A DNA stretch of 32,000 nucleotides, taken from contig CAYXLW010000005.1 in NCBI GenBank assembly GCA_964466055.1, positions 49,508 through 81,507 on the forward strand, written 5' to 3'. The translations under genes were made by a program, and so were the position numbers. Source of the DNA: an uncultured Candidatus Peribacteria bacterium. Lineage in GTDB: Bacteria; Patescibacteriota; Gracilibacteria; GCA-2401425. Positions 2,671-14,780 of the stretch are shown one piece after another (the stretch's first letter is position 1; every line of letters starts with the position of its first letter). The notes beneath the pieces were generated by a model, which was given only the letters and a program-made list of their open reading frames with translations, searched no databases and was not told the origin of the DNA.

Positions 2671-4128
2671 ATGAATGTTGTAAAAGAGCCATTATGGAAA
2701 TATAGACCTGCAAATGACATAAAGGATAAAAAATGGAAAGATATTTTACCAGAAGGTGTATTAGATCAAATTAAAGATACTGATTTTTTTAACTTAATAA
2801 GTTTTTCTGAAGAAGATATTAAAAAAATACAGGAAAATCCTATACAGAAAAACAGAATTTCTGTTGTTTTGTCTGTATATGATGGAGATGATTTATTGCC
2901 ACATACTTTTAAAGCATTAGTAAGGCAAATAAAGAAGGCAGGACTACATGGAGAAATTTTTATTGTATTAAACAGAGGAGGTGGGACTACTGCTAATTAT
3001 TTGAATTCAGAGAATGCAGAAAATATCAAAAAAGATTTAGGACTTTCAGAAGTAGCTTTTACAAAATCTACTAGAGATCATCTTTCAAAAACTGATAAAG
3101 ACAATGCTAAAATACCTGGCAACATACAACTAGATTCTTCACATATGGAAGATAGAGATTCTAATGATGTTAAATTAATAGTTGTAGAGCAAGATAATAT
3201 AGAAGCTAATGCAGGAAAAATAAGAGGATTACGAGATGCATATAATTTTTTATTTGATATATCTACAAGGAGCAACTTTAGACCAGAGTTTTTATTTTCA
3301 ATAGATGCTGAAACTATTTTGCATCCAAGAGATGAAGAAACGGGAGCAGTTGATTTAGAAAATGATAATTCACTTCTTTCATTAATAAAAAAGACAAAGA
3401 ATGGAGAAGTTATAGTTGGAGCTAAAAGTGAATTCATTCCTTTTAAAGAGGGAAAACCAGATTGGGATGCAGAGATTTATGTTCCGACAGCTATGCTAAA
3501 TGGAGTACATGGAATATCTCCCACTGTAGATTATGTACCACTATCAAAATTTGGAAATTCCGAAGATTCTCCACTTTCATTTTTATGTGGAGGAGCAATT
3601 TTAGGAGACTATGCAAGCATTCTAGGCTTGATGAGAAATATTTCTACTATTTTCCCTGGCATTAGAACGGAAGACACGTTTTTATCAATTGCAACCCGAT
3701 TATTAAGTATTAGAACGTCTATTGATCAAGGAGTAGTTCATTTAAATAGGTGCCCTGATGTTAAATATCAAGATAGAAAAGCTTTTAGTAAAGATGCTAT
3801 TACAAAGGCTAGAATAAAAATAAAATCAGGTGCTTCAATAGAATCGGTATTGATTGACAGTGAGCTTCAAATGACAAGATGGTTACAAGGGAATGCAGGA
3901 ATTCAAAACGTGATACCAAAAGATATCTATCATTTATGTTCAAGGGATTTTGATCCTACTAGTTCAAATGGTAATTCTTATATTAAGAATTTAAAATTAC
4001 GTAGAAATATAAATTATAGTAAAGAAGAATTATTATGGTGTTTATATAGATTTAATACTTTTATACAAGATATAGTAAAAAACTCCCCTGATGATATTAA
4101 AGAAGGAAAAGCTTCATGGTTTAGATAA
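2671..4128 (+). CDS. GT-A fold (family 2-like) glycosyltransferase-like protein
   Basis: 485-aa ORF. The N-terminal ISVVLSVYDGDDLL...ALVRQ resembles the GT2 nucleotide-sugar binding start. NAGKIRGLRDAYN and a DxD-like SIDAET follow. Divergent, so the call is weak. Confidence 0.5.
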   Translation: MNVVKEPLWKYRPANDIKDKKWKDILPEGVLDQIKDTDFFNLISFSEEDIKKIQENPIQKNRISVVLSVYDGDDLLPHTFKALVRQIKKAGLHGEIFIVLNRGGGTTANYLNSENAENIKKDLGLSEVAFTKSTRDHLSKTDKDNAKIPGNIQLDSSHMEDRDSNDVKLIVVEQDNIEANAGKIRGLRDAYNFLFDISTRSNFRPEFLFSIDAETILHPRDEETGAVDLENDNSLLSLIKKTKNGEVIVGAKSEFIPFKEGKPDWDAEIYVPTAMLNGVHGISPTVDYVPLSKFGNSEDSPLSFLCGGAILGDYASILGLMRNISTIFPGIRTEDTFLSIATRLLSIRTSIDQGVVHLNRCPDVKYQDRKAFSKDAITKARIKIKSGASIESVLIDSELQMTRWLQGNAGIQNVIPKDIYHLCSRDFDPTSSNGNSYIKNLKLRRNINYSKEELLWCLYRFNTFIQDIVKNSPDDIKEGKASWFR

Positions 4129-4158: not shown

Positions 4159-5385
4159 TTATCTTATGTATTTTAATAACATACTTCTAGTATGTATTCC
4201 TGCTCCCCATGCCGTTAGTGCAATTATATCACCATCTTTCCATTGTATATTTTCTGTTTTCAACTCTTCTTCAATCTCTAATAAAATTTCTTTAGGGGTA
4301 TTTAATATAGCATATATTAAAAGAGGAATTGAGCTTGAGCTTACATTTCCTTTTTTCATAAAAATAGGAGCTGTTATATTTGGGAATTTAGCTTTTACTT
4401 TTTCAATAATTTTTTCAACAATCACTTTATTAGCTTGATGTGTAAGTAAATGGTCAATATTTTCTATCCCTAAATGATTTGCTAATTCTATTACTCCTTC
4501 ACTCATATCATTTACAGCTCTTCTAAAAGTTGGTTTCCCATTCATTCTAATTTTTGGCTTACCATCAGTATTTTTCCCATCATCGTTAAATAAAACATCT
4601 TCTCCCTTGGCTTCTGTTGTAGGGTTTCCTCTGTCGTCTACAAATTCTCGATAGTACTTTTTTCTTTCGCCAAGAATTTTTGCCCCTTCATGATTTTCTT
4701 TTGTTACAATAGATGCAGTAGCTTGATCTCCAAATAATACACATGTATTTCCATCTGAGAAATCAACTATTCTACTAAGCATATCATTTGTTAAGATAAC
4801 AACATGCTTAAGTTCATCAGAACTATTAAGCATTTCTGCTGCTAAAGAAATACCTCCTATGTATCCATTACAAGCTTCATTAACTATCCCCAAAGCTTTT
4901 AAACTTGTATTTTCAGCTATTCTTTCAAGTGTTGAATTTGCTTTATTGATATCACTTCTAAGTGGCAATTGAGAATTAGAATCAAGTATTGTTCCAGTAG
5001 ACATTATTATCCCAGTATTATTAGAATTAATATCAATATTGCTTTTTTGTTTTAATTGATCAAGCAAATGTTTTATAGCTTCTTCTCCCATTTCTATATG
5101 GGAAGAATTTTTAAATTCCCTATACTGAATTCCTATTTTCTTAAAGAACTCTTCATCGTACCTTTCAAAATTTTTAACATTTATTTTCCACTCAGGATGG
5201 ATTAGCTCTATTAACCAGTCAGGATATTTTTCGCCGTCATCATTTTTTACCCTCGATAAAGCTTCCTTATCAAGTTTAAAATGACGATTCTCAAATCTTA
5301 TGCCAGAAGAACTTAATCCAATTGCTGGGAGTAGCCTAATATCACCATCTGTGTGTTTTTGAAAAGAATCTGGATTGCTGGTCAT
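4159..5385 (-). CDS. 3-oxoacyl-ACP synthase III (FabH/KASIII)-like condensing enzyme with an N-terminal extension of about 110 aa
   Basis: 408-aa ORF with a thiolase-fold catalytic triad context: Cys in EACNGY, His in THQAN, Asn in GNVSSSSIP, and a C-terminal WGAG. Confidence 0.75.
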   Translation of the reverse strand: MTSNPDSFQKHTDGDIRLLPAIGLSSSGIRFENRHFKLDKEALSRVKNDDGEKYPDWLIELIHPEWKINVKNFERYDEEFFKKIGIQYREFKNSSHIEMGEEAIKHLLDQLKQKSNIDINSNNTGIIMSTGTILDSNSQLPLRSDINKANSTLERIAENTSLKALGIVNEACNGYIGGISLAAEMLNSSDELKHVVILTNDMLSRIVDFSDGNTCVLFGDQATASIVTKENHEGAKILGERKKYYREFVDDRGNPTTEAKGEDVLFNDDGKNTDGKPKIRMNGKPTFRRAVNDMSEGVIELANHLGIENIDHLLTHQANKVIVEKIIEKVKAKFPNITAPIFMKKGNVSSSSIPLLIYAILNTPKEILLEIEEELKTENIQWKDGDIIALTAWGAGIHTRSMLLKYIR

Positions 5386-6816: not shown

Positions 6817-7737
6817 TCATTGTATTTCTCCTTTATCTTTTAATCTTCTAATATAATTTCTTATTATTTGCTCTTCTGTTTCGATGTTAGTATCACTAAT
6901 CTTTTTTTGTATATTTATAGCCTTCTTCCTAAGACTATCATTTTTACAATCTTCAAGGTTTTTTAAATGTTCTTCTATTGTAACCTTTTTACCATAAAAG
7001 CCCTTTAAAAGTTCTTCTAATTTATAATTGTTAAATCCTTCTGTTATTTTTTCATAACAATCCTTTTCTTTTTTATATTTTTTAAATAATTTCTTTAAAA
7101 TATTTTTTTTGTCTTTTGAAATATCAATAGCCTCAAAATCAATTCTATCCAATTTTTTTTGCATAGGTTTTATTTCTGTTTTCCATGCACTCATTACTTG
7201 CTTCTTTAGCGTATGAGGGAAGATTTCAATAAATAGTCTTCCATTTTTTTCACGTATTTCAAATCCTTTATCATAGATTTTAAAATCTTCTAAAGGAGGT
7301 AATGTAATTCCCTTTCCTTTTTTGTATTTGTAATCAGAGTTTAAACAAATTGGATCATCACATAATTCTTCATGAAACAATACAAATCTCCTAAACATAT
7401 CTTTCATTTTCCCTCCTATATTATAATCTTTATCTTTTGTTAAAGATTCAAATTCTTTATTAAATTTATCCATATTTCTAATCACATAATAATCTTCTAG
7501 ATCTGGATCAGAGCACTCACACATATCTTTAAATATTTCAGCTTCTTTCCTTTTAGTAGGAATATCAAATTTTTTTCTTAAAATTTTAACTTTTTTTAAA
7601 AGTTTTTCATTTTCTAATATGAACATTGCTTCTTTCTTGAACTGTTCTGAAATATCTCCACCTTGGTATAAACGATTTTGTTTATATAAATCATTTATAA
7701 ATTTTTTGTGTTTTTTAACTGTAAATTTCATCGACAT
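6817..7737 (-). CDS. hypothetical Lys/Glu-rich protein
   Basis: 306-aa ORF with no recognised motif. Its stop codon lies 1 nt from the IS right end. It sits 59 nt downstream of the HAD gene on the same strand. Confidence 0.55.
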   Translation of the reverse strand: MSMKFTVKKHKKFINDLYKQNRLYQGGDISEQFKKEAMFILENEKLLKKVKILRKKFDIPTKRKEAEIFKDMCECSDPDLEDYYVIRNMDKFNKEFESLTKDKDYNIGGKMKDMFRRFVLFHEELCDDPICLNSDYKYKKGKGITLPPLEDFKIYDKGFEIREKNGRLFIEIFPHTLKKQVMSAWKTEIKPMQKKLDRIDFEAIDISKDKKNILKKLFKKYKKEKDCYEKITEGFNNYKLEELLKGFYGKKVTIEEHLKNLEDCKNDSLRKKAINIQKKISDTNIETEEQIIRNYIRRLKDKGEIQ

Positions 7738-7796
7738 TTTTATAAAAAATTACGATGAACAGTATAATACAAATTAAAAACTTCTAAACATGCTTT

Positions 7797-8132
7797 TTAA
7801 ATAATCCTCATTTCAATTTCTTTCCAATTATTCTTATATTCAATCGCTCTGTCACAAATGTAATAATCTGCTACCACCTTTCCTTTATCTCTATAAATCT
7901 CATCATAAAGGATATTATTGTCTTTTAAGAACTGTATCATCTCTGTTTCATATTTCTCATTGTCATCAAAGTAGTCACTGTTGCTTCTGCAAGAATAGAT
8001 GATGACATACCAACCTTTTGCCTTAAATTTTTCTATCACTTCCTTACCGCCCTCTTCCAATTCTCCAATCTCTGGGAATTTGTCTTTACAGATAGTACCG
8101 TCAAAGTCTATTGCTATACGTTTTTGTGTCAT
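7797..8132 (-). CDS. HAD-superfamily mini-phosphatase (DxDxT type; nucleotidase / polynucleotide 3'-phosphatase-like)
   Basis: 111-aa ORF with motif I IAIDFDGTI and motif II-like IIYSCRS. It has a 4-nt ATGA overlap with the upstream beta-CASP gene. Confidence 0.6.
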   Translation of the reverse strand: MTQKRIAIDFDGTICKDKFPEIGELEEGGKEVIEKFKAKGWYVIIYSCRSNSDYFDDNEKYETEMIQFLKDNNILYDEIYRDKGKVVADYYICDRAIEYKNNWKEIEMRII

Positions 8133-9373
8133 ATTTTAAGAGGCTTATTATCTGGTAAAATTGTTACATTAGAGAAGTATTCTTTGTACTTCTCTGGTTC
8201 TTGTGTATGAACGGGGATAACTGTTTTAGGATTAACTGCATTAACTAATCTTTCCATTTCATTTACTCCACCATGTCCTGAAGTATGGATATGGTAAAAG
8301 TTCATTTCTTTTTCTTTACATAAATCCTGTAAGTCAGAATCTTCTAAATATCCCTCCCATAAACCCCAAATGAAATTAGCGTTCTTTAATGGATACAATC
8401 TATCAAAGAATTTTCTTGAACCTCTATTGTCCTTAAACAAGAAAACTAAATCTTTTTTTCTTTCTGCCATTTCATCAGATGTTATTTTAGATTTTCTATA
8501 TCTGTAAACATTTTCTTTATATCCATTATCTAAAAGAACCTTTGTTTGATTAGGTGAGAAGTACACTCTTATGTTTCTCCAATCATATTGTGGAAGTGTT
8601 TTTGATTTATTTCCTAACTCTTCAAGTACAAATGCTGTGTATGGATCAATTATAAGCTCCTTCTTTGCTTTAGTGGTTGCTTTATAGATGCTTACTAATC
8701 TATCTATATTCTGTGATGCTACTGTAATTAATGATATATTTTCTTGTTTTTCAAAAATCTTTATCAATGCTTTTTCAACGGCTTCTTCTGTGGGATACTT
8801 TTCATTATTTCTAGTAATTCTTGTACCTTCTAAAAGTAAGATGTTTATATTTTTAGGGATATCTTTTAGAAGTTTTGGGAATAGATATTTTTCTCTTCCT
8901 GCTACCCCCCTAAAATCTCCACTAAAGAATATTTGTTTATCTTCATGTTCAAATAGAAATGCGTAACTATCAAATGCAGAATGATTTACTCTGTATGGCG
9001 TTATTTTAATATCTCCAATATTAAAAGATTTTCTATCTTCAAATAATTGGATATTCTCTATCTCTATGCACATATCTCTTAAAAACAAGTTTGATATTTT
9101 TATAATTGATCTAGCTCCTTCACTCATAAATACGGGAACAGTTTTTGGTATTTCGTTCATTTCTCCGTAATGGTCTTGATGTCCATGTGAAAGTAATACT
9201 GCCTTTTGTTTCTTATCATCCTCTACTATTTTCTTAAAGTTTAAAGTTTCTCGTTTCTCGTCAGAGAGTGGCATTCCCATATCAATGATAATGTTTGTCA
9301 TCTCTGTGCTTACAGAAATACAAGTTCCTCCTATTTCTGATGAGCCTCTTATTATTTTTAGTTCTATACTCAT
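8129..9373 (-). CDS. beta-CASP family metallo-beta-lactamase nuclease (RNase J / CPSF / Artemis-like fold)
   Basis: 414-aa ORF with MBL motifs HGHQDH, VNHS and SGDF, plus beta-CASP motif A (LLLEGT), motif B (HTSGH) and motif C (PVHT). Confidence 0.8.
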   Translation of the reverse strand: MSIELKIIRGSSEIGGTCISVSTEMTNIIIDMGMPLSDEKRETLNFKKIVEDDKKQKAVLLSHGHQDHYGEMNEIPKTVPVFMSEGARSIIKISNLFLRDMCIEIENIQLFEDRKSFNIGDIKITPYRVNHSAFDSYAFLFEHEDKQIFFSGDFRGVAGREKYLFPKLLKDIPKNINILLLEGTRITRNNEKYPTEEAVEKALIKIFEKQENISLITVASQNIDRLVSIYKATTKAKKELIIDPYTAFVLEELGNKSKTLPQYDWRNIRVYFSPNQTKVLLDNGYKENVYRYRKSKITSDEMAERKKDLVFLFKDNRGSRKFFDRLYPLKNANFIWGLWEGYLEDSDLQDLCKEKEMNFYHIHTSGHGGVNEMERLVNAVNPKTVIPVHTQEPEKYKEYFSNVTILPDNKPLKI

Positions 9374-9376
9374 GTT

Positions 9377-10309
9377 TTAATTTTTACTAAATATTTGATT
9401 ACTAAAGTTTTTCCTAAATTCTTCAAGAGAGAAAATGTTTTGTTTATAGAGTCCATATCCCATGAAACTTGCTACTGCAAATCTTAGATTTGCATGTTTC
9501 ATTGGCTCTAATTTGGATAATATCTGATTAAGTTTAGAACTATCTGGGTCATGGTTTGCTAGTATAAATACAAAATCTGGTTTTTCTTCAGATATTTCTG
9601 TTATATGGTTTGGGTTTTTATCCAATGATTTTATTAATCCTAAATCCCTTTTCTGCTTAAATGATTCAATCATTTCTTCCTTAATATTTTGAAGTCTGGA
9701 ATCATCTGATAAAAAAGATTCCATATCTCTAATATGTTTATCTATACTGGCACTTCCTTTAAGTGCACCATCTCCATATTTCTTTTCTATAAAGATTAGT
9801 TTAGGTTTATATCCTTTAAAAAACCTCCTAGAACATCCGTCTGATTCCCACTCAAAAGCTATGGCGTCAAATCTTGCTCCTATATCTGTATATTCAATAT
9901 CACAGATAAAGTAGTCTGTTGCTTGGTTAAGATTATTCTCTCTAACCAATAACTGCTGAAACTCTCTCTCATCTTTAGGGTGTTTGGTAAACCATAAATC
10001 CATTTCATGTTTTAACTGTGGAATTAGGTTTATCCATTTTTGTACTATTTCTTCGTTTGTTATTGTTTTCGATAATCCTTCTACTAGTTCTTTATTATGC
10101 ACTAAATAATTTTTATCAAAGTAGATTTCATACCTGTTTTCATTCAGTTCTTTTATCTTTATCAGATTTCCTCCTCGATAATAAATGTTTACTGCATTTT
10201 CTCTAATTTCTAAATCTAAGGTTAAGCATTCTTTACATTGTCTTAAGAATGGGTTTAACATTCCTTCCTGTAGGTTAAGCATGAACTGCTGTGATAGTTT
10301 TCTAGTCAT
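9377..10309 (-). CDS. hypothetical protein with a possible PD-(D/E)XK nuclease-like core
   Basis: 310-aa ORF, 3 nt upstream of the beta-CASP gene. The central segment FICDIEY...RFDAIAFEW...LIFIEKKYG could supply a D...ExK arrangement. This is only a motif-level guess. Confidence 0.55.
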   Translation of the reverse strand: MTRKLSQQFMLNLQEGMLNPFLRQCKECLTLDLEIRENAVNIYYRGGNLIKIKELNENRYEIYFDKNYLVHNKELVEGLSKTITNEEIVQKWINLIPQLKHEMDLWFTKHPKDEREFQQLLVRENNLNQATDYFICDIEYTDIGARFDAIAFEWESDGCSRRFFKGYKPKLIFIEKKYGDGALKGSASIDKHIRDMESFLSDDSRLQNIKEEMIESFKQKRDLGLIKSLDKNPNHITEISEEKPDFVFILANHDPDSSKLNQILSKLEPMKHANLRFAVASFMGYGLYKQNIFSLEEFRKNFSNQIFSKN

Positions 10310-10329
10310 AATTGGGCATATTAAAAAGT

Positions 10330-10461
10330 GGGTAAACCGTTCTGGCGACCCTCATCTTCGTCCACATTGTGGATTCCAATTTGGCAGAAGCGATTTACCC
10401 GCTTTTCCATTGGAATCCCAATATAAAAATTTGATGTGGTTATGCCGAAGATGAAAGTCGC
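10330..10461 (-). ncRNA. structured 5' leader / candidate cis-regulatory RNA or riboswitch of the 10309->7797 operon
   Basis: GC-enriched patch in an AT-rich spacer. Pairings in plus-strand coordinates: 10345-10360 with 10446-10461 (16 bp, continuous only on the minus-strand RNA because 10350/10456 and 10351/10455 become G-U). Also 10362-10367 with 10434-10439, and 10371-10380 with 10409-10418 (10 bp perfect). Also 10388-10392 with 10400-10404, whose loop GGGUAAA pairs with UUUACCC at 10330-10336, 20 nt before the ATG. Confidence 0.5.
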
Positions 10462-10467
10462 AACAGC

Positions 10468-10496
10468 ACTTTACTAGCTTAATTTTCACTAATCAA
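10468..10496 (-). promoter_or_regulatory. putative sigma70-type promoter TTGATT-N17-TAAAGT
   Basis: On the minus strand the -35 is at 10496-10491 and the -10 at 10473-10468. The predicted start falls about 7 nt downstream, at the first base of the outer helix (about 10461). Confidence 0.35.
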
Positions 10497-10603
10497 GCCG
10501 TAGAGAAAAATTCTTTTAAAAAACATGCTTTTGTTGCATGTCATATATAGTCGCATTATAACTGGATATATACGGATTTTATATTAAAAAATAGGCACAA
10601 CTT

Positions 10604-10633
10604 TAAAAAAAGTTGCAGGTTTTTAGTGCAACT
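10604..10633 (-). terminator. intrinsic terminator-like hairpin with no obvious upstream gene
   Basis: On the minus strand: AGTTGCA-loop(9)-TGCAACT followed by TTTTTTT. Confidence 0.4.
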
Positions 10634-10896
10634 AATCTATAATTTTACATATTTTGTAAAAAACAAAACTCCTTTAACCCCATAAAAGTCAGATGACGAA
10701 TAATGGCTTTAAATAAGGATATTGCCAACATTATGAAGCTTGTTTTAGCCTTATACTAAGCAACATTAATACTTGCAAGTCTATGAACCCTTTTTATGGT
10801 GTCTCATTTGTCTCATTTTTTATCGAAAGGGTGTTAGACTGAAATGCTCTACCAAGTAAAATAAAAAGATATATCGAAGATCGATATTTTTATTTA

Positions 10897-10925
10897 TTGA
10901 ATTCCTACAAGAAACTAATTACGAT
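10897..10925 (+). promoter_or_regulatory. putative promoter TTGAAT-N17-TACGAT for the Cys-rich gene
   Basis: Hexamers read directly. A perfect palindrome ATATCGA-AGA-TCGATAT (10871-10887) sits just upstream. Confidence 0.3.
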
Positions 10926-10958
10926 TCTAACAGCTAAAGTCCATCATAAGGCAATAAC

Positions 10959-12647
10959 ATGCAAGCAAAATGTACATTATCTGGGGAAATATTTGATGTT
11001 TCTGATCATGAAATTGAACTTCGAAAAAAAATCAATTTTGGAAATACATTGCCGAGCATGTTACCAAAATATCGCTTTCAATACCTTGGAGCTTTTTGGC
11101 CACAGTGGAATCTTCATAAAAGAAATTGTGATAAAACTGGTAAGCCAATTATCTCAATCTTTCGTCCAGATTGCCGATACCCTGTATGGCACAGAGATGA
11201 ATGGATAAAATATAATTCACCTCCATCACAAGATTTTGATTTTTCACGTTCCTTTTTTGAACAAGTAGCGGAGCTTTTCCCAAAATGTCCAATTCCACAT
11301 ATTTTCCAAAGTAATAACCAAAACTGTGAATACACAGATGATTGGTACCATAGTAAAAATTGTTATTTATGTCATTCAGGTCAAAATAATGAAGATTGTA
11401 GATATTGCTATGGATGCGATAGTATAAAGAACGTTCATGGTGGAGTTTTCTCATTCAAATCTGAATTTTGTTACGACATTATTAATTGTAGTAGTTGTTA
11501 CAAAAGTCGTTTTCTTCTAAATTGTAAAAATGTTACAGATTCTGCTTTTTTATATGATTGTAGAGACTGTAGTGATTGTCTTTTTTGCTTCAATCTTCGT
11601 CATAAAAAATACTGTTTTGGAAACCAACAACTAAGTAAAGAAGAATTTGAAGAAAAGAAAAAAGAGTGGAGTTTTTCATCGTATAAAAATTATGAAAAAG
11701 CAAAATTGTACTTTGCTAGAATGATGGTCAAAAAAGCTTGGCATAGAGCTATCCAAATAGATCTGTGTGAAAATTCTTCAGGGAATTTTATCCACCATTG
11801 TAAGGATTGTGAGAACTGTTATATGCTTTCTTATCACGAAGCTTGTGCTAACACAACTTTTTGTGGACCAAATGCTAAATTTATTTTAGATTCAATTGGA
11901 ACGGTTGGTAGCGAACTTTCTTTTATGTGTTCACTTCCTGTTTATTGTTACAATACAATCTTCTGTTTTAGTGTTGATAATTGCAAGTTTGTTGAATACA
12001 GTGCATATCTTCAAAACTGTGAATATTGTTTTGGATGTTGTGGGCTGTTTAGGAAAAAATATTGTATTTTTAATAAACAGTATTCAAAGGAGGAGTATGA
12101 GAAACTAGTTCCAAGAATTCGTGAACACATGGGAAAATTCCCCTCTACCTTTGGGAGAGGGATTAGGGGTGAGGATGAATGGGGACAATTTTTCCCTCAA
12201 AGTATGGCACCTAATCCTTATAATGAAAGTTTTTCAGGATATCACTTTCCTCTTAATTCAGAATCAAGCCAAGAATTTTGGCAAGCTGGTCCATTGGAAA
12301 GAATTAATATGAAAACTGCTGAAATAAATGAGCTTCCAGATTCTCTGGAATCACTTACAGATGAAAAAGAAGAATGGCTTATTACCCAAGTTTTTTGGGA
12401 TGACAAATATCAGCGTCCTTTTCAAATTCAAAAGGATGAGATTAAGTTTATAAAAATAATGAATGCACCTCTTCCTCATTGTTATTACATCAATCGTATT
12501 CAAAGTAATTTTAAATGGATGCCTTTTAATGGAGAGCTTAGGGAGTCTAAATGTGCTAAGTCTGGGAAGATGATCCATACGAATTGGGCAAAAGAGTATG
12601 ATGAAAGAATTTTGAGCGAGGAGGAGTACTTGAAATTAGTGAAATAA
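10959..12647 (+). CDS. modular cysteine-rich repeat protein of unknown function
   Basis: 562-aa ORF with dense CxxCxxC motifs (CRYCYGC, CSSCYKS, CRDCSDCLFC, CKDCENC, CEYCFGCC). It has two internally duplicated Cys-rich blocks, each ending in KKYC(F/I)xNxQxSKEE(F/Y)E. These are flanked by related N- and C-terminal modules. Confidence 0.8.
   Translation: MQAKCTLSGEIFDVSDHEIELRKKINFGNTLPSMLPKYRFQYLGAFWPQWNLHKRNCDKTGKPIISIFRPDCRYPVWHRDEWIKYNSPPSQDFDFSRSFFEQVAELFPKCPIPHIFQSNNQNCEYTDDWYHSKNCYLCHSGQNNEDCRYCYGCDSIKNVHGGVFSFKSEFCYDIINCSSCYKSRFLLNCKNVTDSAFLYDCRDCSDCLFCFNLRHKKYCFGNQQLSKEEFEEKKKEWSFSSYKNYEKAKLYFARMMVKKAWHRAIQIDLCENSSGNFIHHCKDCENCYMLSYHEACANTTFCGPNAKFILDSIGTVGSELSFMCSLPVYCYNTIFCFSVDNCKFVEYSAYLQNCEYCFGCCGLFRKKYCIFNKQYSKEEYEKLVPRIREHMGKFPSTFGRGIRGEDEWGQFFPQSMAPNPYNESFSGYHFPLNSESSQEFWQAGPLERINMKTAEINELPDSLESLTDEKEEWLITQVFWDDKYQRPFQIQKDEIKFIKIMNAPLPHCYYINRIQSNFKWMPFNGELRESKCAKSGKMIHTNWAKEYDERILSEEEYLKLVK
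12140..12174. repeat. GC-rich palindromic mini-element (copy A), embedded in-frame in the Cys-rich CDS
   Basis: CCCCTCT-ACC-TTTGGG-AGAGGG-ATTAGGGGTGAGG. The off-frame translation is SPLPLGEGLGVR; the gene's own frame reads FPSTFGRGIRGEDE. A related inverted copy lies at 30496-30527. Confidence 0.55.
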
Positions 12648-13012: not shown

Positions 13013-13699
13013 TTAATACATAATGCTTCTTACTCCTTTTCGTTTTTTATTTTCTTTTGCATAGAAAACTTTCCCTTTTTTGACAATAGATTTTAATCGT
13101 TTTATTCCTTCACAGATGGCAATTTTCACAGCTTCTTTAGGAGAATCAGCAATAAAAAAAGGAATTCTTTTACGTTCATCTAGGTATTTACCATCGAATA
13201 ATAGAGGTATTATTTTATCCACCCACCCACCAAATCCTCTCAGTAATATGACTGGTACCTGATTTCTATATGCAACAGTCATTTCATTAAGAGTTCCTGC
13301 TCCACCACTAACTGCAATCATGATATCTGAAGATAAGGGCAAGAGATATTCAGGTCCTCCTTCCATCATTCCAGTAGTAATGCCTACTGTATAAATATCA
13401 CCTACGCCAATATCATTAAGCGTATTAAAAAATCCTATAGTTATACTCTTTTTTTTAATACCTGCTTTCGCAACAGTGCTCATAATGCCTCCACCTCCGC
13501 CAGTAACAATTGTAGCACCTTGGTCTCCCAGTAGTTCTCCGATTGTTTTGACAGCTTTAATTAGTCCTTTGGGGCTACGCCATCCTTTTAAGTATTCTTC
13601 AGTCCCAGCACTTCCTATAATGCCAACCTGCAAAATTAATTTTCCAACACCAACACCAACACTTTCTTTGTGTTTATTAGAAATAGATTTTTTAAACAT
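13013..13699 (-). CDS. LOG / TIGR00725-family (lysine-decarboxylase-like Rossmann) protein
   Basis: 228-aa ORF with GIIGSAG, TGGGGGIM and the LOG signature SGGAGTLNE. Confidence 0.75.
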   Translation of the reverse strand: MFKKSISNKHKESVGVGVGKLILQVGIIGSAGTEEYLKGWRSPKGLIKAVKTIGELLGDQGATIVTGGGGGIMSTVAKAGIKKKSITIGFFNTLNDIGVGDIYTVGITTGMMEGGPEYLLPLSSDIMIAVSGGAGTLNEMTVAYRNQVPVILLRGFGGWVDKIIPLLFDGKYLDERKRIPFFIADSPKEAVKIAICEGIKRLKSIVKKGKVFYAKENKKRKGVRSIMY

Positions 13700-13712
13700 A
13701 ATACAAGTTGAA

Positions 13713-14780
13713 TTATAGTAATTTTATAATGCCTTTTGGATTTTTAGGTAATTTTTTATGAACCCTTTTAAGTTCATTTTCTATCTCTTCCATTTTTTTT
13801 CGTTTCCATCCATAAGCTAACGAATGATTATGTGCATAAATGTGTACACTAGATTCTTTGATTTTATATAAAGGAACCAATCCATTAGATTTTAGTGATT
13901 TTCCTGTTTCGGCTAAATCTACAATAGCATCTGCCAGAAAAGGAGCATGAGATTCGGTTGATCCATGAGAAGTAATCACTTGAATAGGTATGTTTTTTTC
14001 AACAAAAAATTTCTTTGTAATATTAGGTAATTCAGTAGATATTTTTTTATTTTTAAAGTCTTTCAGGTTTTTATATTCAGAAATATGATTTTTTGGAACA
14101 GCTAAAACCCACAAAACTTTACCTCGTCCTCTCTCATTATAATCTAGATCTCCCATGTCAGTAACATTAGAGCCATATTCTTCTATAAGATCACTGCCAA
14201 CCAGTCCCATATCAACCTGCCCATCCTCAATAAGCCTTGGGATCTCTTTAGCTCTAACAACTAGTAGTTTTATTTTATCTTCATTTCTTATTGAGGGCTT
14301 TAAACATTGTTTTCCTCTAAGCTCTAGTTGATATTTTGTAAGATTAAATAGCATAATTGTAGAGGAGTATAAAGATCCAGATGGGATAGCCAAAGTTACT
14401 ATGTCCGAATATTTCTCATAAACTTTTTCTGGATCGAATACTTTTTCACCAGTAGTTACCCATTTATTACCATTTTTAGCTTTATAAAAACAACTTCTAT
14501 AGCCATCTTCAACAGCACCACCGATTTGATTAACTTTAATAAGCAAAGAATCCTCATCATTATCAGTATAAATTTCTTTTACAATCTGAAAATTTCCAGA
14601 TTCTTCGCCTTTCATCCAAAGTCGTTTTTTCTTACGGCTGTAGTAATGTACCTTGCCAGTTTTTTTAGTCCATTTCCATGCCGTCTTATCCATAAAACCA
14701 ACCATTAATACCTCTTGGTTTTTATAATCTTGGATTACTACTGGCAATAAACCATTCATTTTTTGAAAATTGAGACTCAT
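13713..14780 (-). CDS. fusion of a phosphoribosyl-AMP cyclohydrolase (HisI)-like domain and short-form ATP phosphoribosyltransferase (HisG)
   Basis: 355-aa ORF. Residues about 8-105 match HisI (LLPVVIQD...VLMVGFM...SRKKKRLWMKGEESGNFQ...GYRSCFY). Residues about 125-355 match HisG, including the signature ADAIVDLAETGKSLKSNGL. Confidence 0.8.
   Translation of the reverse strand: MSLNFQKMNGLLPVVIQDYKNQEVLMVGFMDKTAWKWTKKTGKVHYYSRKKKRLWMKGEESGNFQIVKEIYTDNDEDSLLIKVNQIGGAVEDGYRSCFYKAKNGNKWVTTGEKVFDPEKVYEKYSDIVTLAIPSGSLYSSTIMLFNLTKYQLELRGKQCLKPSIRNEDKIKLLVVRAKEIPRLIEDGQVDMGLVGSDLIEEYGSNVTDMGDLDYNERGRGKVLWVLAVPKNHISEYKNLKDFKNKKISTELPNITKKFFVEKNIPIQVITSHGSTESHAPFLADAIVDLAETGKSLKSNGLVPLYKIKESSVHIYAHNHSLAYGWKRKKMEEIENELKRVHKKLPKNPKGIIKLL

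Follow-up and report, generated by a model that had tools for sequence, protein, structure and literature searches.

Does the spacer in front of a two-nuclease operon encode a structured RNA, and, if so, what does this RNA do? The question is raised by an element of about 140 nt on the minus strand of a 32,000-nucleotide stretch of DNA from an uncultured Candidatus Peribacteria bacterium (contig CAYXLW010000005.1; hereafter, the window). The element precedes the gene of a 310-aa protein with PD-(D/E)XK-like nuclease motifs, which is followed in the same operon by the gene of an RNase-J-like beta-CASP nuclease. A first-pass annotation, made by eye, had described it as an unclassified structured RNA, either a leader of the operon or a stand-alone partner of the nucleases. 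Here, we confirm that it is a structured RNA, that its structure is conserved by compensatory substitutions in orthologous leaders, and that it abuts the start codon of the first gene. Regarding its role, we favour a 5' leader that, acting in cis, keeps translation initiation of the putatively toxic nuclease operon locked, and would give this reading an even chance of being correct.

Fold and pseudoknot

The element differs in composition from its surroundings, with G+C content of 42% compared to 28% in the upstream spacer, which bears out the GC-enriched patch noticed initially. The structure occupies 10461-10323 of the minus strand, for which the computed minimum energy is -57.9 kcal/mol (z = -6.12), whereas the plus strand folds more weakly (-53.7 kcal/mol, z = -4.48). 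RNAfold recovers the 16-bp outer helix P1, the perfect 10-bp helix P2, which encloses a 28-nt loop, and the small hairpin AAGCG/CGCUU inside this loop (core AGCG/CGCU, 10400-10403 with 10389-10392). Six further pairs, CCACAU with AUGUGG, constitute the helix P1b. They are missing from the computed minimum-energy fold, where AUGUGG pairs instead with the strand just 5' of P2; since RNAfold extends P2 outward in this way, the case for P1b comes from the hand model and from a counterpart in a homologous locus, described below. Taken together, P1, P1b, and P2 form a rod of about 32 bp. The interrupted outer helix, the 10-bp helix, the promoter hexamers, and the loop–tail match of the first-pass annotation are all present at the minus-strand coordinates it gave. 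As for the two controls named there, none out of 200 dinucleotide-shuffled sequences was as stable as the element, and the thermodynamic fold returned P1, P2, and the inner hairpin, but not P1b. The repeat search detected no second copy of the element in the window.

The pairing between the loop sequence GGGUAAA and UUUACCC (10336-10330), 20 nt before the ATG at 10309, proved to be real, but it is twice as long as the seven pairs noticed originally. The 9-bp core of this pseudoknot is formed by GGGUAAAUC (10400-10392) and GGUUUACCC (10338-10330), and, beyond a C.A mismatch, it is extended by 6 bp between GAAAAG (10407-10402) and CUUUUU (10328-10323), to 14-15 bp in total, thereby reaching the U-tract beside the start codon. 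Participation of both AAAGCGG and CCACUUUUU in the lengthened pseudoknot explains their conservation. Duplex estimates for the pseudoknot range from -23 to -28 kcal/mol. In a single sequence, the loop–tail match is only modestly unusual, as shuffled tails equal it in approximately 1% of cases for the window and 5% for the homologs; hence, the pseudoknot is convincing because it is conserved with compensatory changes, not because of the complementarity in any one sequence. Both strands of the pseudoknot have alternative partners, namely, the local P2-loop hairpin, which competes for the same loop bases, and the pairing of the P1 GGG with the tail CCC; these alternatives show no covariation, the GGG and CCC being invariant, and the pseudoknot is predicted to prevail over them by a wide margin.

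The C.A mismatch at 10401/10329, which divides the pseudoknot into parts of 9 bp and 5-6 bp, is kept in all three lineages that carry the RNA (see below); a protonated wobble may form there, or the position may serve for recognition.

Conservation and distribution in the gene family

We collected approximately 170 loci encoding homologs of the nuclease pair, 160 from genome and metagenome collections and the others via exact protein look-up, and searched them for the RNA by nhmmer and two covariance models (R1, R2). The RNA was found only in the window, in its 95%-identical sibling (L001/L002), in L003/L004, whose protein P0003 shares 51% amino acid identity with the 310-aa protein of the window, and in L170, whose protein P0122 is 59% identical to P0003 and whose contig ends inside the 5' loop. 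These carriers are the closest protein relatives of the window gene, and form three lineages.

Pairs of P2 and the pseudoknot were counted in the alignment (A6), with slid partners as controls, whereas P1 and P1b were compared by script and by hand; an insertion in L003 upsets the MAFFT alignment of the P1 5' arm. In P2 and the pseudoknot core, 56 out of 56 cells are canonical across the three lineages, and both sides have changed in seven out of 19 pairs, compared to zero or one in the slid controls. The changed pairs comprise four out of ten in P2 (GGAUUCCAAU/AUUGGAAUCC in the window, GGAAUCUAACG/CGUUAGAUUCC in L003, and GGAAUCUAG/CUAGAUUCC in L170) and three in the pseudoknot core, with a fourth in the hand alignment (GGGUAAAUC/GGUUUACCC, GGGGAAAUC/GAUUUCCCC, and GGAGGAAUU/AAUUCCUCC, respectively), and both helices are paired in all three lineages. 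The 5-6-bp pseudoknot extension is conserved, but nearly invariant; if it is counted, 98.6% of cells pair, the single exception being one A.C mismatch in L170. Covariation across homologous loci, which had been named as the decisive test of the fold, therefore came out in its favour.

The outer rod behaves similarly. In the gapless sequence-anchored alignment with the window, P1 of L003 keeps 13 canonical pairs, among which four have substitutions in both partners and a fifth in a single partner. P1b of L003, CUUUUU/GAAAGG, is also 6 bp long and lies at the same place as in the window, with three pairs changed on both sides. L003 and L170 have an additional hairpin in the 5' internal loop. The register of the inner hairpin, in turn, differs between the lineages according to the alignment and the pairing script; hence, this hairpin, although present in the window and in its computed fold, is not a conserved helix. 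The minus-strand call, initially made from the promoter and the two G-U pairs 10456/10350 and 10455/10351 of P1, is right, since in the homologs as well every G-U pair falls on the gene strand.

Outside the three lineages, approximately 165 out of 170 loci with the same gene pair (more than 95%) lack the RNA by nhmmer, the covariance models, and the fold scan. In the 170 nt upstream of the gene in 159 family loci, the median fold z-score is approximately 0; the outliers are L001 (-8.2) and L003 (-6.3), with two more loci just past -3 and no others below -3.2. As so many loci have the gene pair and no RNA, the nucleases work without it, which would be expected if the RNA were a regulatory addition of one lineage; its confinement to a tiny clade argues against an obligate RNA partner and favours a leader. 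Of the two roles proposed initially, the leader is thus retained, and the stand-alone partner, at least as an obligate one, is disfavoured: the RNA is an accessory of one lineage.

That the RNA is common to the whole protein family was considered and ruled out, as nhmmer, R1, and R2 find this clade only. The best additional covariance-model match, in L058, lies within a coding region on the opposite strand, and a regular-expression match in L027 is coding sequence. Protein walks from P0003 and P0122 produced one new lineage, that of P0122 itself, and no members beyond it; the loci of P0002, P0005, P0006, P0007, and P0123, obtained by look-ups, contain no such RNA. Of two pattern scans of viral contig DNA, one yielded no match and the other, 16 chance matches, and blastn against plasmid and phage collections yielded no match to the element.

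Position before the start codon and possible functions

Between the 3' strand of the pseudoknot and the AUG, there is 1 nt in L003, 3 nt in L170, and 13 nt in the window. Since this leaves no space for a separate promoter or ribosome site, the RNA is most likely a part of the mRNA. Shine-Dalgarno sites were found in none of 26 window genes and none of 11 L003 genes checked, suggesting a host that is Bacteroidota-like or in some other way Shine-Dalgarno-independent. In organisms without such sites, initiation probably depends on an A/U-rich leader that is accessible. The upstream regions of the checked genes are A/U-rich, often with AAAA(T/C)ATG at the start.

Two side observations concern start codons. 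In L170, the database open reading frame (ORF) for P0122 (339 aa; 88-1107) begins at an AUG within the RNA, so that its first 14 residues come from leader sequence; the protein truly starts at an internal Met of the called ORF, that of MARKLST, 3 nt after the pseudoknot. In the window, an upstream ORF of 17 codons (10355-10302, minus strand) starts at an AUG in the P1 3' arm and ends with a UAG overlapping the main start (AUGACUAG); the homologous spot is AUG in L003 and UUG in L170. A conserved peptide encoded in the tail was rejected, as indels in the conserved CAGRAAC region put the window and L003 into different reading frames; translational coupling of the upstream ORF to the main gene is possible.

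The promoter proposed in the first-pass annotation, TTGATT-N17-TAAAGT, is only partly upheld. The hexamers are there, and would place the transcription start at approximately 10461, the first base of P1; the equivalent site of L003, TTGCCA-N17-TACAGT, likewise predicts transcription from the first P1 base of that locus, and the sequence shared by the window and L001 sets in precisely at the -35 hexamer (window 10497). The match is, however, weak (eight out of 12 positions, under the threshold of the scan tool). Sigma-70 promoter scans may not apply here, because these genomes have no Shine-Dalgarno sites and have A/U-rich upstream regions.

Directly upstream of the -35-like hexamer, L001 has approximately 220 nt extra (53-272; compare window 10497-10506), and the homology resumes farther upstream, window 10506-10557 corresponding to L001 1-52. 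About 110 nt upstream of the promoter-like site, the window has a hairpin resembling a terminator, GUUGCA-(9 nt)-UGCAAC with a U7 tract behind it (10632-10605, minus strand), which is absent from the scan output because of its 9-nt loop, and would insulate the leader promoter from upstream transcription. The terminator scan found no terminator between the RNA and the gene in window 10200-11000; in L003 3700-4300, it found one terminator on the opposite strand (3861-3844) and none in the leader.

Table 1. Features of the leader and of the operon, in window coordinates, listed in the direction of transcription.
Feature	Coordinates	Strand	Remarks
-35-like hexamer	10491-10496	-	TTGATT; read from the sequence
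-10-like hexamer	10468-10473	-	TAAAGT; 17 nt after the -35; consensus match only
P1 5' arm	10446-10461	-	GCGACUUUCAUCUUCG; read from the sequence and the computed fold; pairs with the P1 3' arm
P1b 5' arm	10434-10439	-	CCACAU; within the asymmetric 5' internal loop 10419-10445
P2 5' arm	10409-10418	-	GGAUUCCAAU
P2 loop (L2)	10381-10408	-	28 nt; conserved AAAGCGG and CUGCCA (alignment A6); 5' half, 10392-10407, is the pseudoknot 5' strand
P2 3' arm	10371-10380	-	AUUGGAAUCC
P1b 3' arm	10362-10367	-	AUGUGG
P1 3' arm	10345-10360	-	CGAAGAUGAGGGUCGC; GGGU kept in all three lineages
Linker	10339-10344	-	CAGAAC, conserved as CAGRAA, between P1 and the pseudoknot 3' strand (alignment A6)
Pseudoknot 3' strand	10323-10338	-	GGUUUACCC-A-CUUUUU
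Spacer and AUG of the 310-aa gene	10307-10322	-	13-nt A/U-rich spacer; no Shine-Dalgarno site
310-aa protein	9377-10309	-	PD-(D/E)XK-like motifs; first gene of the operon
414-aa protein	8129-9373	-	metallo-beta-lactamase / beta-CASP nuclease, RNase-J-like; Pfam Lactamase_B_2 and RMMBL
111-aa protein	7797-8132	-	HAD-type phosphatase-like; part of the lineage-specific operon tail 6817-8132
306-aa protein	6817-7737	-	no assigned function; part of the lineage-specific operon tail

According to the translational lock that we favour, transcription of the minus strand would start at or near 10461, so that the RNA begins with P1, and the leader would fold into the rod of P1, P1b, and P2; the 5' half of the P2 loop would then pair with the last 16 nt of the leader, producing the 14-15-pair pseudoknot that ends 1-13 nt before the AUG. 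As the genomes have no Shine-Dalgarno sites, initiation should need an unstructured A/U-rich stretch before the AUG; with this stretch locked into a helix of great stability, the PD-(D/E)XK-like nuclease would be translated poorly, and so, via translational coupling, would the downstream beta-CASP nuclease. Translation would rise only upon remodelling of the fold, with cleavage or binding by a protein (e.g., one of the operon's own RNase-like or nuclease products) or a switch to the competing P2-loop hairpin as possible triggers. In the three-dimensional picture that we infer, P2 and the pseudoknot stack into one rod of approximately 25 bp, and a second rod, about as long, is made up of P1 and P1b; the two would be linked by the long 5' junction at one end and by the 6-9-nt CAGRAA linker at the other, with the AUG emerging at the nick between P2 and the pseudoknot.

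Several observations weigh against this reading. Given its estimated stability of -23 to -28 kcal/mol, the pseudoknot looks constitutive rather than switchable. The invariant unpaired CUGCCA and CAGRAA suggest specific recognition, and would fit an RNA–protein complex equally well. In the window, the 13-nt spacer means that the initiation region is only partly occluded. The promoter matches are weak, and a sigma-70-type consensus may not be that of this organism. L170 comes without the 5' part of the RNA, and there are just three independent lineages, two of them from one metagenome, so that the covariation is qualitative and no statistic of the R-scape type is possible.

The conserved unpaired nucleotides have prompted other readings. 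With a lower probability than that of the lock, the leader may be more than passive, a sensor RNA of a new class, being either a riboswitch for a small molecule derived from infection or stress, or an RNA bound or cleaved by one of the operon's own nucleases; it would arm an uncharacterised but widespread two-nuclease defence module only upon attack, and recognition would involve CUGCCA, CAGRAA, and the C.A mismatch kept in the pseudoknot. CUGCCA and CAGRAA, both invariant, also resemble the recognition sites expected of an RNA antitoxin or guard partner. By the logic of type III toxin–antitoxin systems or retrons, such an RNA would be cut off the transcript's 5' end, possibly by the beta-CASP RNase, and would bind a nuclease and hold it inactive until infection. 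Such a partner would agree with the compact, closed, and very stable fold, whose 5' and 3' ends are united by P1, with the presence in the operon of an RNase-J-like enzyme that could process the RNA, with the defence-island neighbours of the family, and with the weak hairpin followed by a U-run in the tail, which could release a short RNA. We nevertheless consider it unlikely, as more than 95% of the loci with the same pair have no RNA, so that the nucleases need no RNA partner, tandem repeats and a terminator between the RNA and the gene were not detected, and, in L003 and L170, just 1-3 nt separate the tail from the AUG. A ligand-sensing riboswitch in the narrower sense, with a small molecule at the pseudoknot junction deciding whether the tail is sequestered and AAAGCGG, CUGCCA, and CAGRAA forming the pocket, appears quite unlikely: the pseudoknot 3' strand does abut the start codon, conserved unpaired nucleotides do flank the pseudoknot, and both of its strands do have alternative pairings (the P2-loop hairpin and the P1 GGG with the tail CCC), but these pairings do not covary, no Rfam riboswitch matches, the 14-15 bp at -23 to -28 kcal/mol are far above the few pairs that a ligand usually tips, and occurrence in three lineages of one gene family differs from that of riboswitches, which follow a metabolic theme.

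The remaining explanations give the RNA a simpler role or none. As a 5' stabiliser or insulator, the structure would protect the transcript against 5'-end-dependent decay, including that by the RNase-J-like beta-CASP protein encoded in the operon itself, or would be a cleavage target for RNase autoregulation, as in rnc, rne, and pnp. P1 begins at the predicted +1 in the window and L003, and a long double-stranded rod resembles RNase autoregulatory leaders. Still, for stabilization a terminal hairpin would suffice, a covarying pseudoknot to the initiation region and the conserved loops are left unexplained, and other family members with the same RNase have no such leader, which makes this role very unlikely. 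More improbable still is a transcription attenuator, where a tail hairpin (GGGU...ACCC) with the U-run would be an intrinsic terminator, competing with the base of P1 and the pseudoknot and setting read-through. This hairpin (-8 to -11 kcal/mol) can form in each lineage directly ahead of CUUUUU or CUCUUU, and the conserved GGG of the P1 3' arm pairs with U as G-U wobbles, as if retained for a second partner; however, the hairpin is weak, varies in register by lineage, and shows no covariation, the terminator scan finds none here in the window or L003, and both P1 and the pseudoknot exceed it by far in stability and fold ahead of it as the RNA is transcribed. Finally, we hardly credit the possibility that the element acts not as RNA but as a DNA-level palindrome (a repeat of the miniature inverted-repeat transposable element, MITE, or repetitive extragenic palindromic, REP, type or a recombination site), or is a chance hairpin. 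It is indeed a long imperfect palindrome in an intergenic spacer of a mobile element with transposase and type IV secretion genes, and its plus strand also folds well (z = -4.5). Against this, its position relative to one gene family is constant, it occurs once in the window and has no plasmid, phage, or viral matches, its G-U pairs would become C-A mismatches if read from the opposite strand or as DNA, and a covarying pseudoknot has no rationale at the DNA level.

The two-nuclease family and comparison with known RNAs

In the 310-aa protein, D132, D137, E139, D148, E175, and K177 are invariant in an alignment of 20 homologs. It belongs to no Pfam, NCBIfam, or PADLOC family, and its AlphaFold2 model (predicted local distance difference test score, pLDDT, 86.8) has no significant match in PDB by sequence or fold (Foldseek); the weak, non-significant top Foldseek matches include the PD-(D/E)XK nucleases NucS/EndoMS, NucC, SfsA, and Mus81. 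The NCBIfam model for RNase J matches the 414-aa protein at 8.8e-27, which falls short of the curated cut-off. The HAD-type phosphatase-like gene, downstream of the pair in the window, recurs upstream of it in L099-L101 (L099 1005-1424); the window and L099 proteins are 28% identical (pairwise E = 3e-6), and this gene may be an accessory third component.

The genes of the two nucleases adjoin on one strand, in either order, in 109 out of 118 family loci where both are seen. The pair is widespread, with more than 1,185 protein clusters, more than 400 metagenome loci, and at least 261 species-representative genomes from many bacterial lineages, and at least one archaeal metagenome-assembled genome is among the protein matches. 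The surroundings in L003 and L005 are those of a defence island, with genes for restriction-modification, a DUF4411/M78 pair, and Nmad genes. PADLOC 2.0 (2023) does not recognise the pair, and literature searches on the pair or the RNA found nothing specific. The pair is thus a candidate for an undescribed anti-phage defence system. The window itself resembles a mobile element, with genes for a ParB-methylase, a DDE transposase, RadC, a SLOG protein, and type IV secretion.

Several side observations concern these surroundings. On this apparently conjugative element, a fused PRA-CH/HisG-like protein (355 aa) is encoded beside the SLOG-domain protein (228 aa; window 13013-14780), an odd context for histidine-biosynthesis domains, and the two may be another nucleotide-based defence or signalling pair. 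Upstream of the genes for P0004 and P0002, both homologs of the 310-aa protein, there is a second, unrelated conserved non-coding block (L005 ~880-1050, L006 ~780-950, L167 ~2985-3150), in which about 150-200 nt are ~97% identical, compared to 74% for the proteins and ~75% for the flanks; it is GC-rich, with predicted hairpins and no Rfam or tRNA match, and may be a different leader or a small RNA for the same gene pair. Conserved palindromic, operator-like motifs occur just upstream of the gene in other family members, namely, L010 (~4880-4940), L092 (~400-460), L008 (~4840-4900), and L102 (~3820-3880), TGTAGAC...GTCTACA being common to L010 and L092, and L099 has a divergent 85-aa ORF that looks, by eye only, like an XRE-type helix-turn-helix protein. 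From these sequences, other lineages may control the gene at the level of transcription rather than through an RNA leader.

If the translational lock is correct, the RNA is a new motif that gates a toxic nuclease pair via an unusually long pseudoknot over the start-codon region, and a clean natural example of translation gating in organisms without Shine-Dalgarno sites. Its general importance would be modest because of its rarity, with three RNA lineages among billions of proteins and hundreds of loci, although its structure has better support than so few sequences would usually provide. The gene pair itself draws attention, being widespread, located beside restriction-modification and other defence genes, and not recognised by PADLOC, and is a good anti-phage candidate.

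The initial statement that the fold falls outside the known classes holds. Rfam 15 yields nothing in the whole window at gathering thresholds and only four weak matches in 10200-10960 at E <= 10 (13.7-18.2 bits, compared to thresholds of 60-279); in L003, L005, and L167, nothing is found at E <= 1. With both the gathering and the permissive searches null, a known RNA family was rejected. Several specific classes were rejected as well: a ToxI-like type III toxin–antitoxin RNA, as there are no tandem repeats in 10300-10500 (Tandem Repeats Finder and repeat search) and no terminator before the gene; a retron or DRT RNA, as there is no reverse transcriptase among the four operon proteins (Pfam, NCBIfam, PADLOC); a guide RNA (CRISPR, OMEGA, or bridge RNA), as the RNA is missing from most loci with the same pair; and a MITE/REP-type repeat, as the 32-kb window has one copy, the plasmid, phage, and viral collections have no match, and the element was found only upstream of one clade of one gene family. 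The RNA is thus a new motif of a familiar general kind, most likely a cis-acting structured 5' leader, which is in none of the curated families.

Among leaders of this kind, translational riboswitches in which the ribosome-binding region itself forms the 3' strand of the pseudoknot (SAM-II, preQ1-II/III, guanidine-III, fluoride) share with it a hairpin loop that pairs with the 3' tail near the start codon, conserved unpaired nucleotides flanking the pseudoknot, and location in a 5' leader acting in cis; the RNA described here differs from them in its larger size (a rod of ~32 bp), longer pseudoknot, the lack of Rfam matches and of Shine-Dalgarno involvement, and in its restriction to three lineages of one gene family, with no known ligand. 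Autogenous leaders (E. coli rpsO/S15, the alpha-operon/S4, phage T4 gene 32) similarly place a structured leader or pseudoknot at the initiation region of an mRNA for a nucleic-acid-binding product, and the leaders through which RNases regulate themselves (rnc, rne, pnp) are comparable in that the operon here encodes nucleases, one of them RNase-J-like, as judged from sequence; neither group has sequence or model similarity to our RNA.

Type I toxin mRNAs (the hok fbi element, tisB, aapA1) are alike in hiding the initiation region by long-range mRNA pairing until processing. In contrast to them, no antisense RNA gene is seen here, the lock would lie entirely in the 5' leader rather than in a 5'-3' interaction of the whole mRNA, and the products are nucleases instead of small membrane peptides. 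Similarly, defence RNAs (ToxI of ToxIN, the AbiF-associated RNA, retron msr-msd, DRT2/DRT9) are structured RNAs located directly upstream of a defence-type effector and sharing its promoter, and ToxI also forms pseudoknots; the RNA described here has no tandem repeats, no terminator separating it from the gene, and no reverse transcriptase or HEPN partner, and, unlike these RNAs, it is dispensable for most members of the family.

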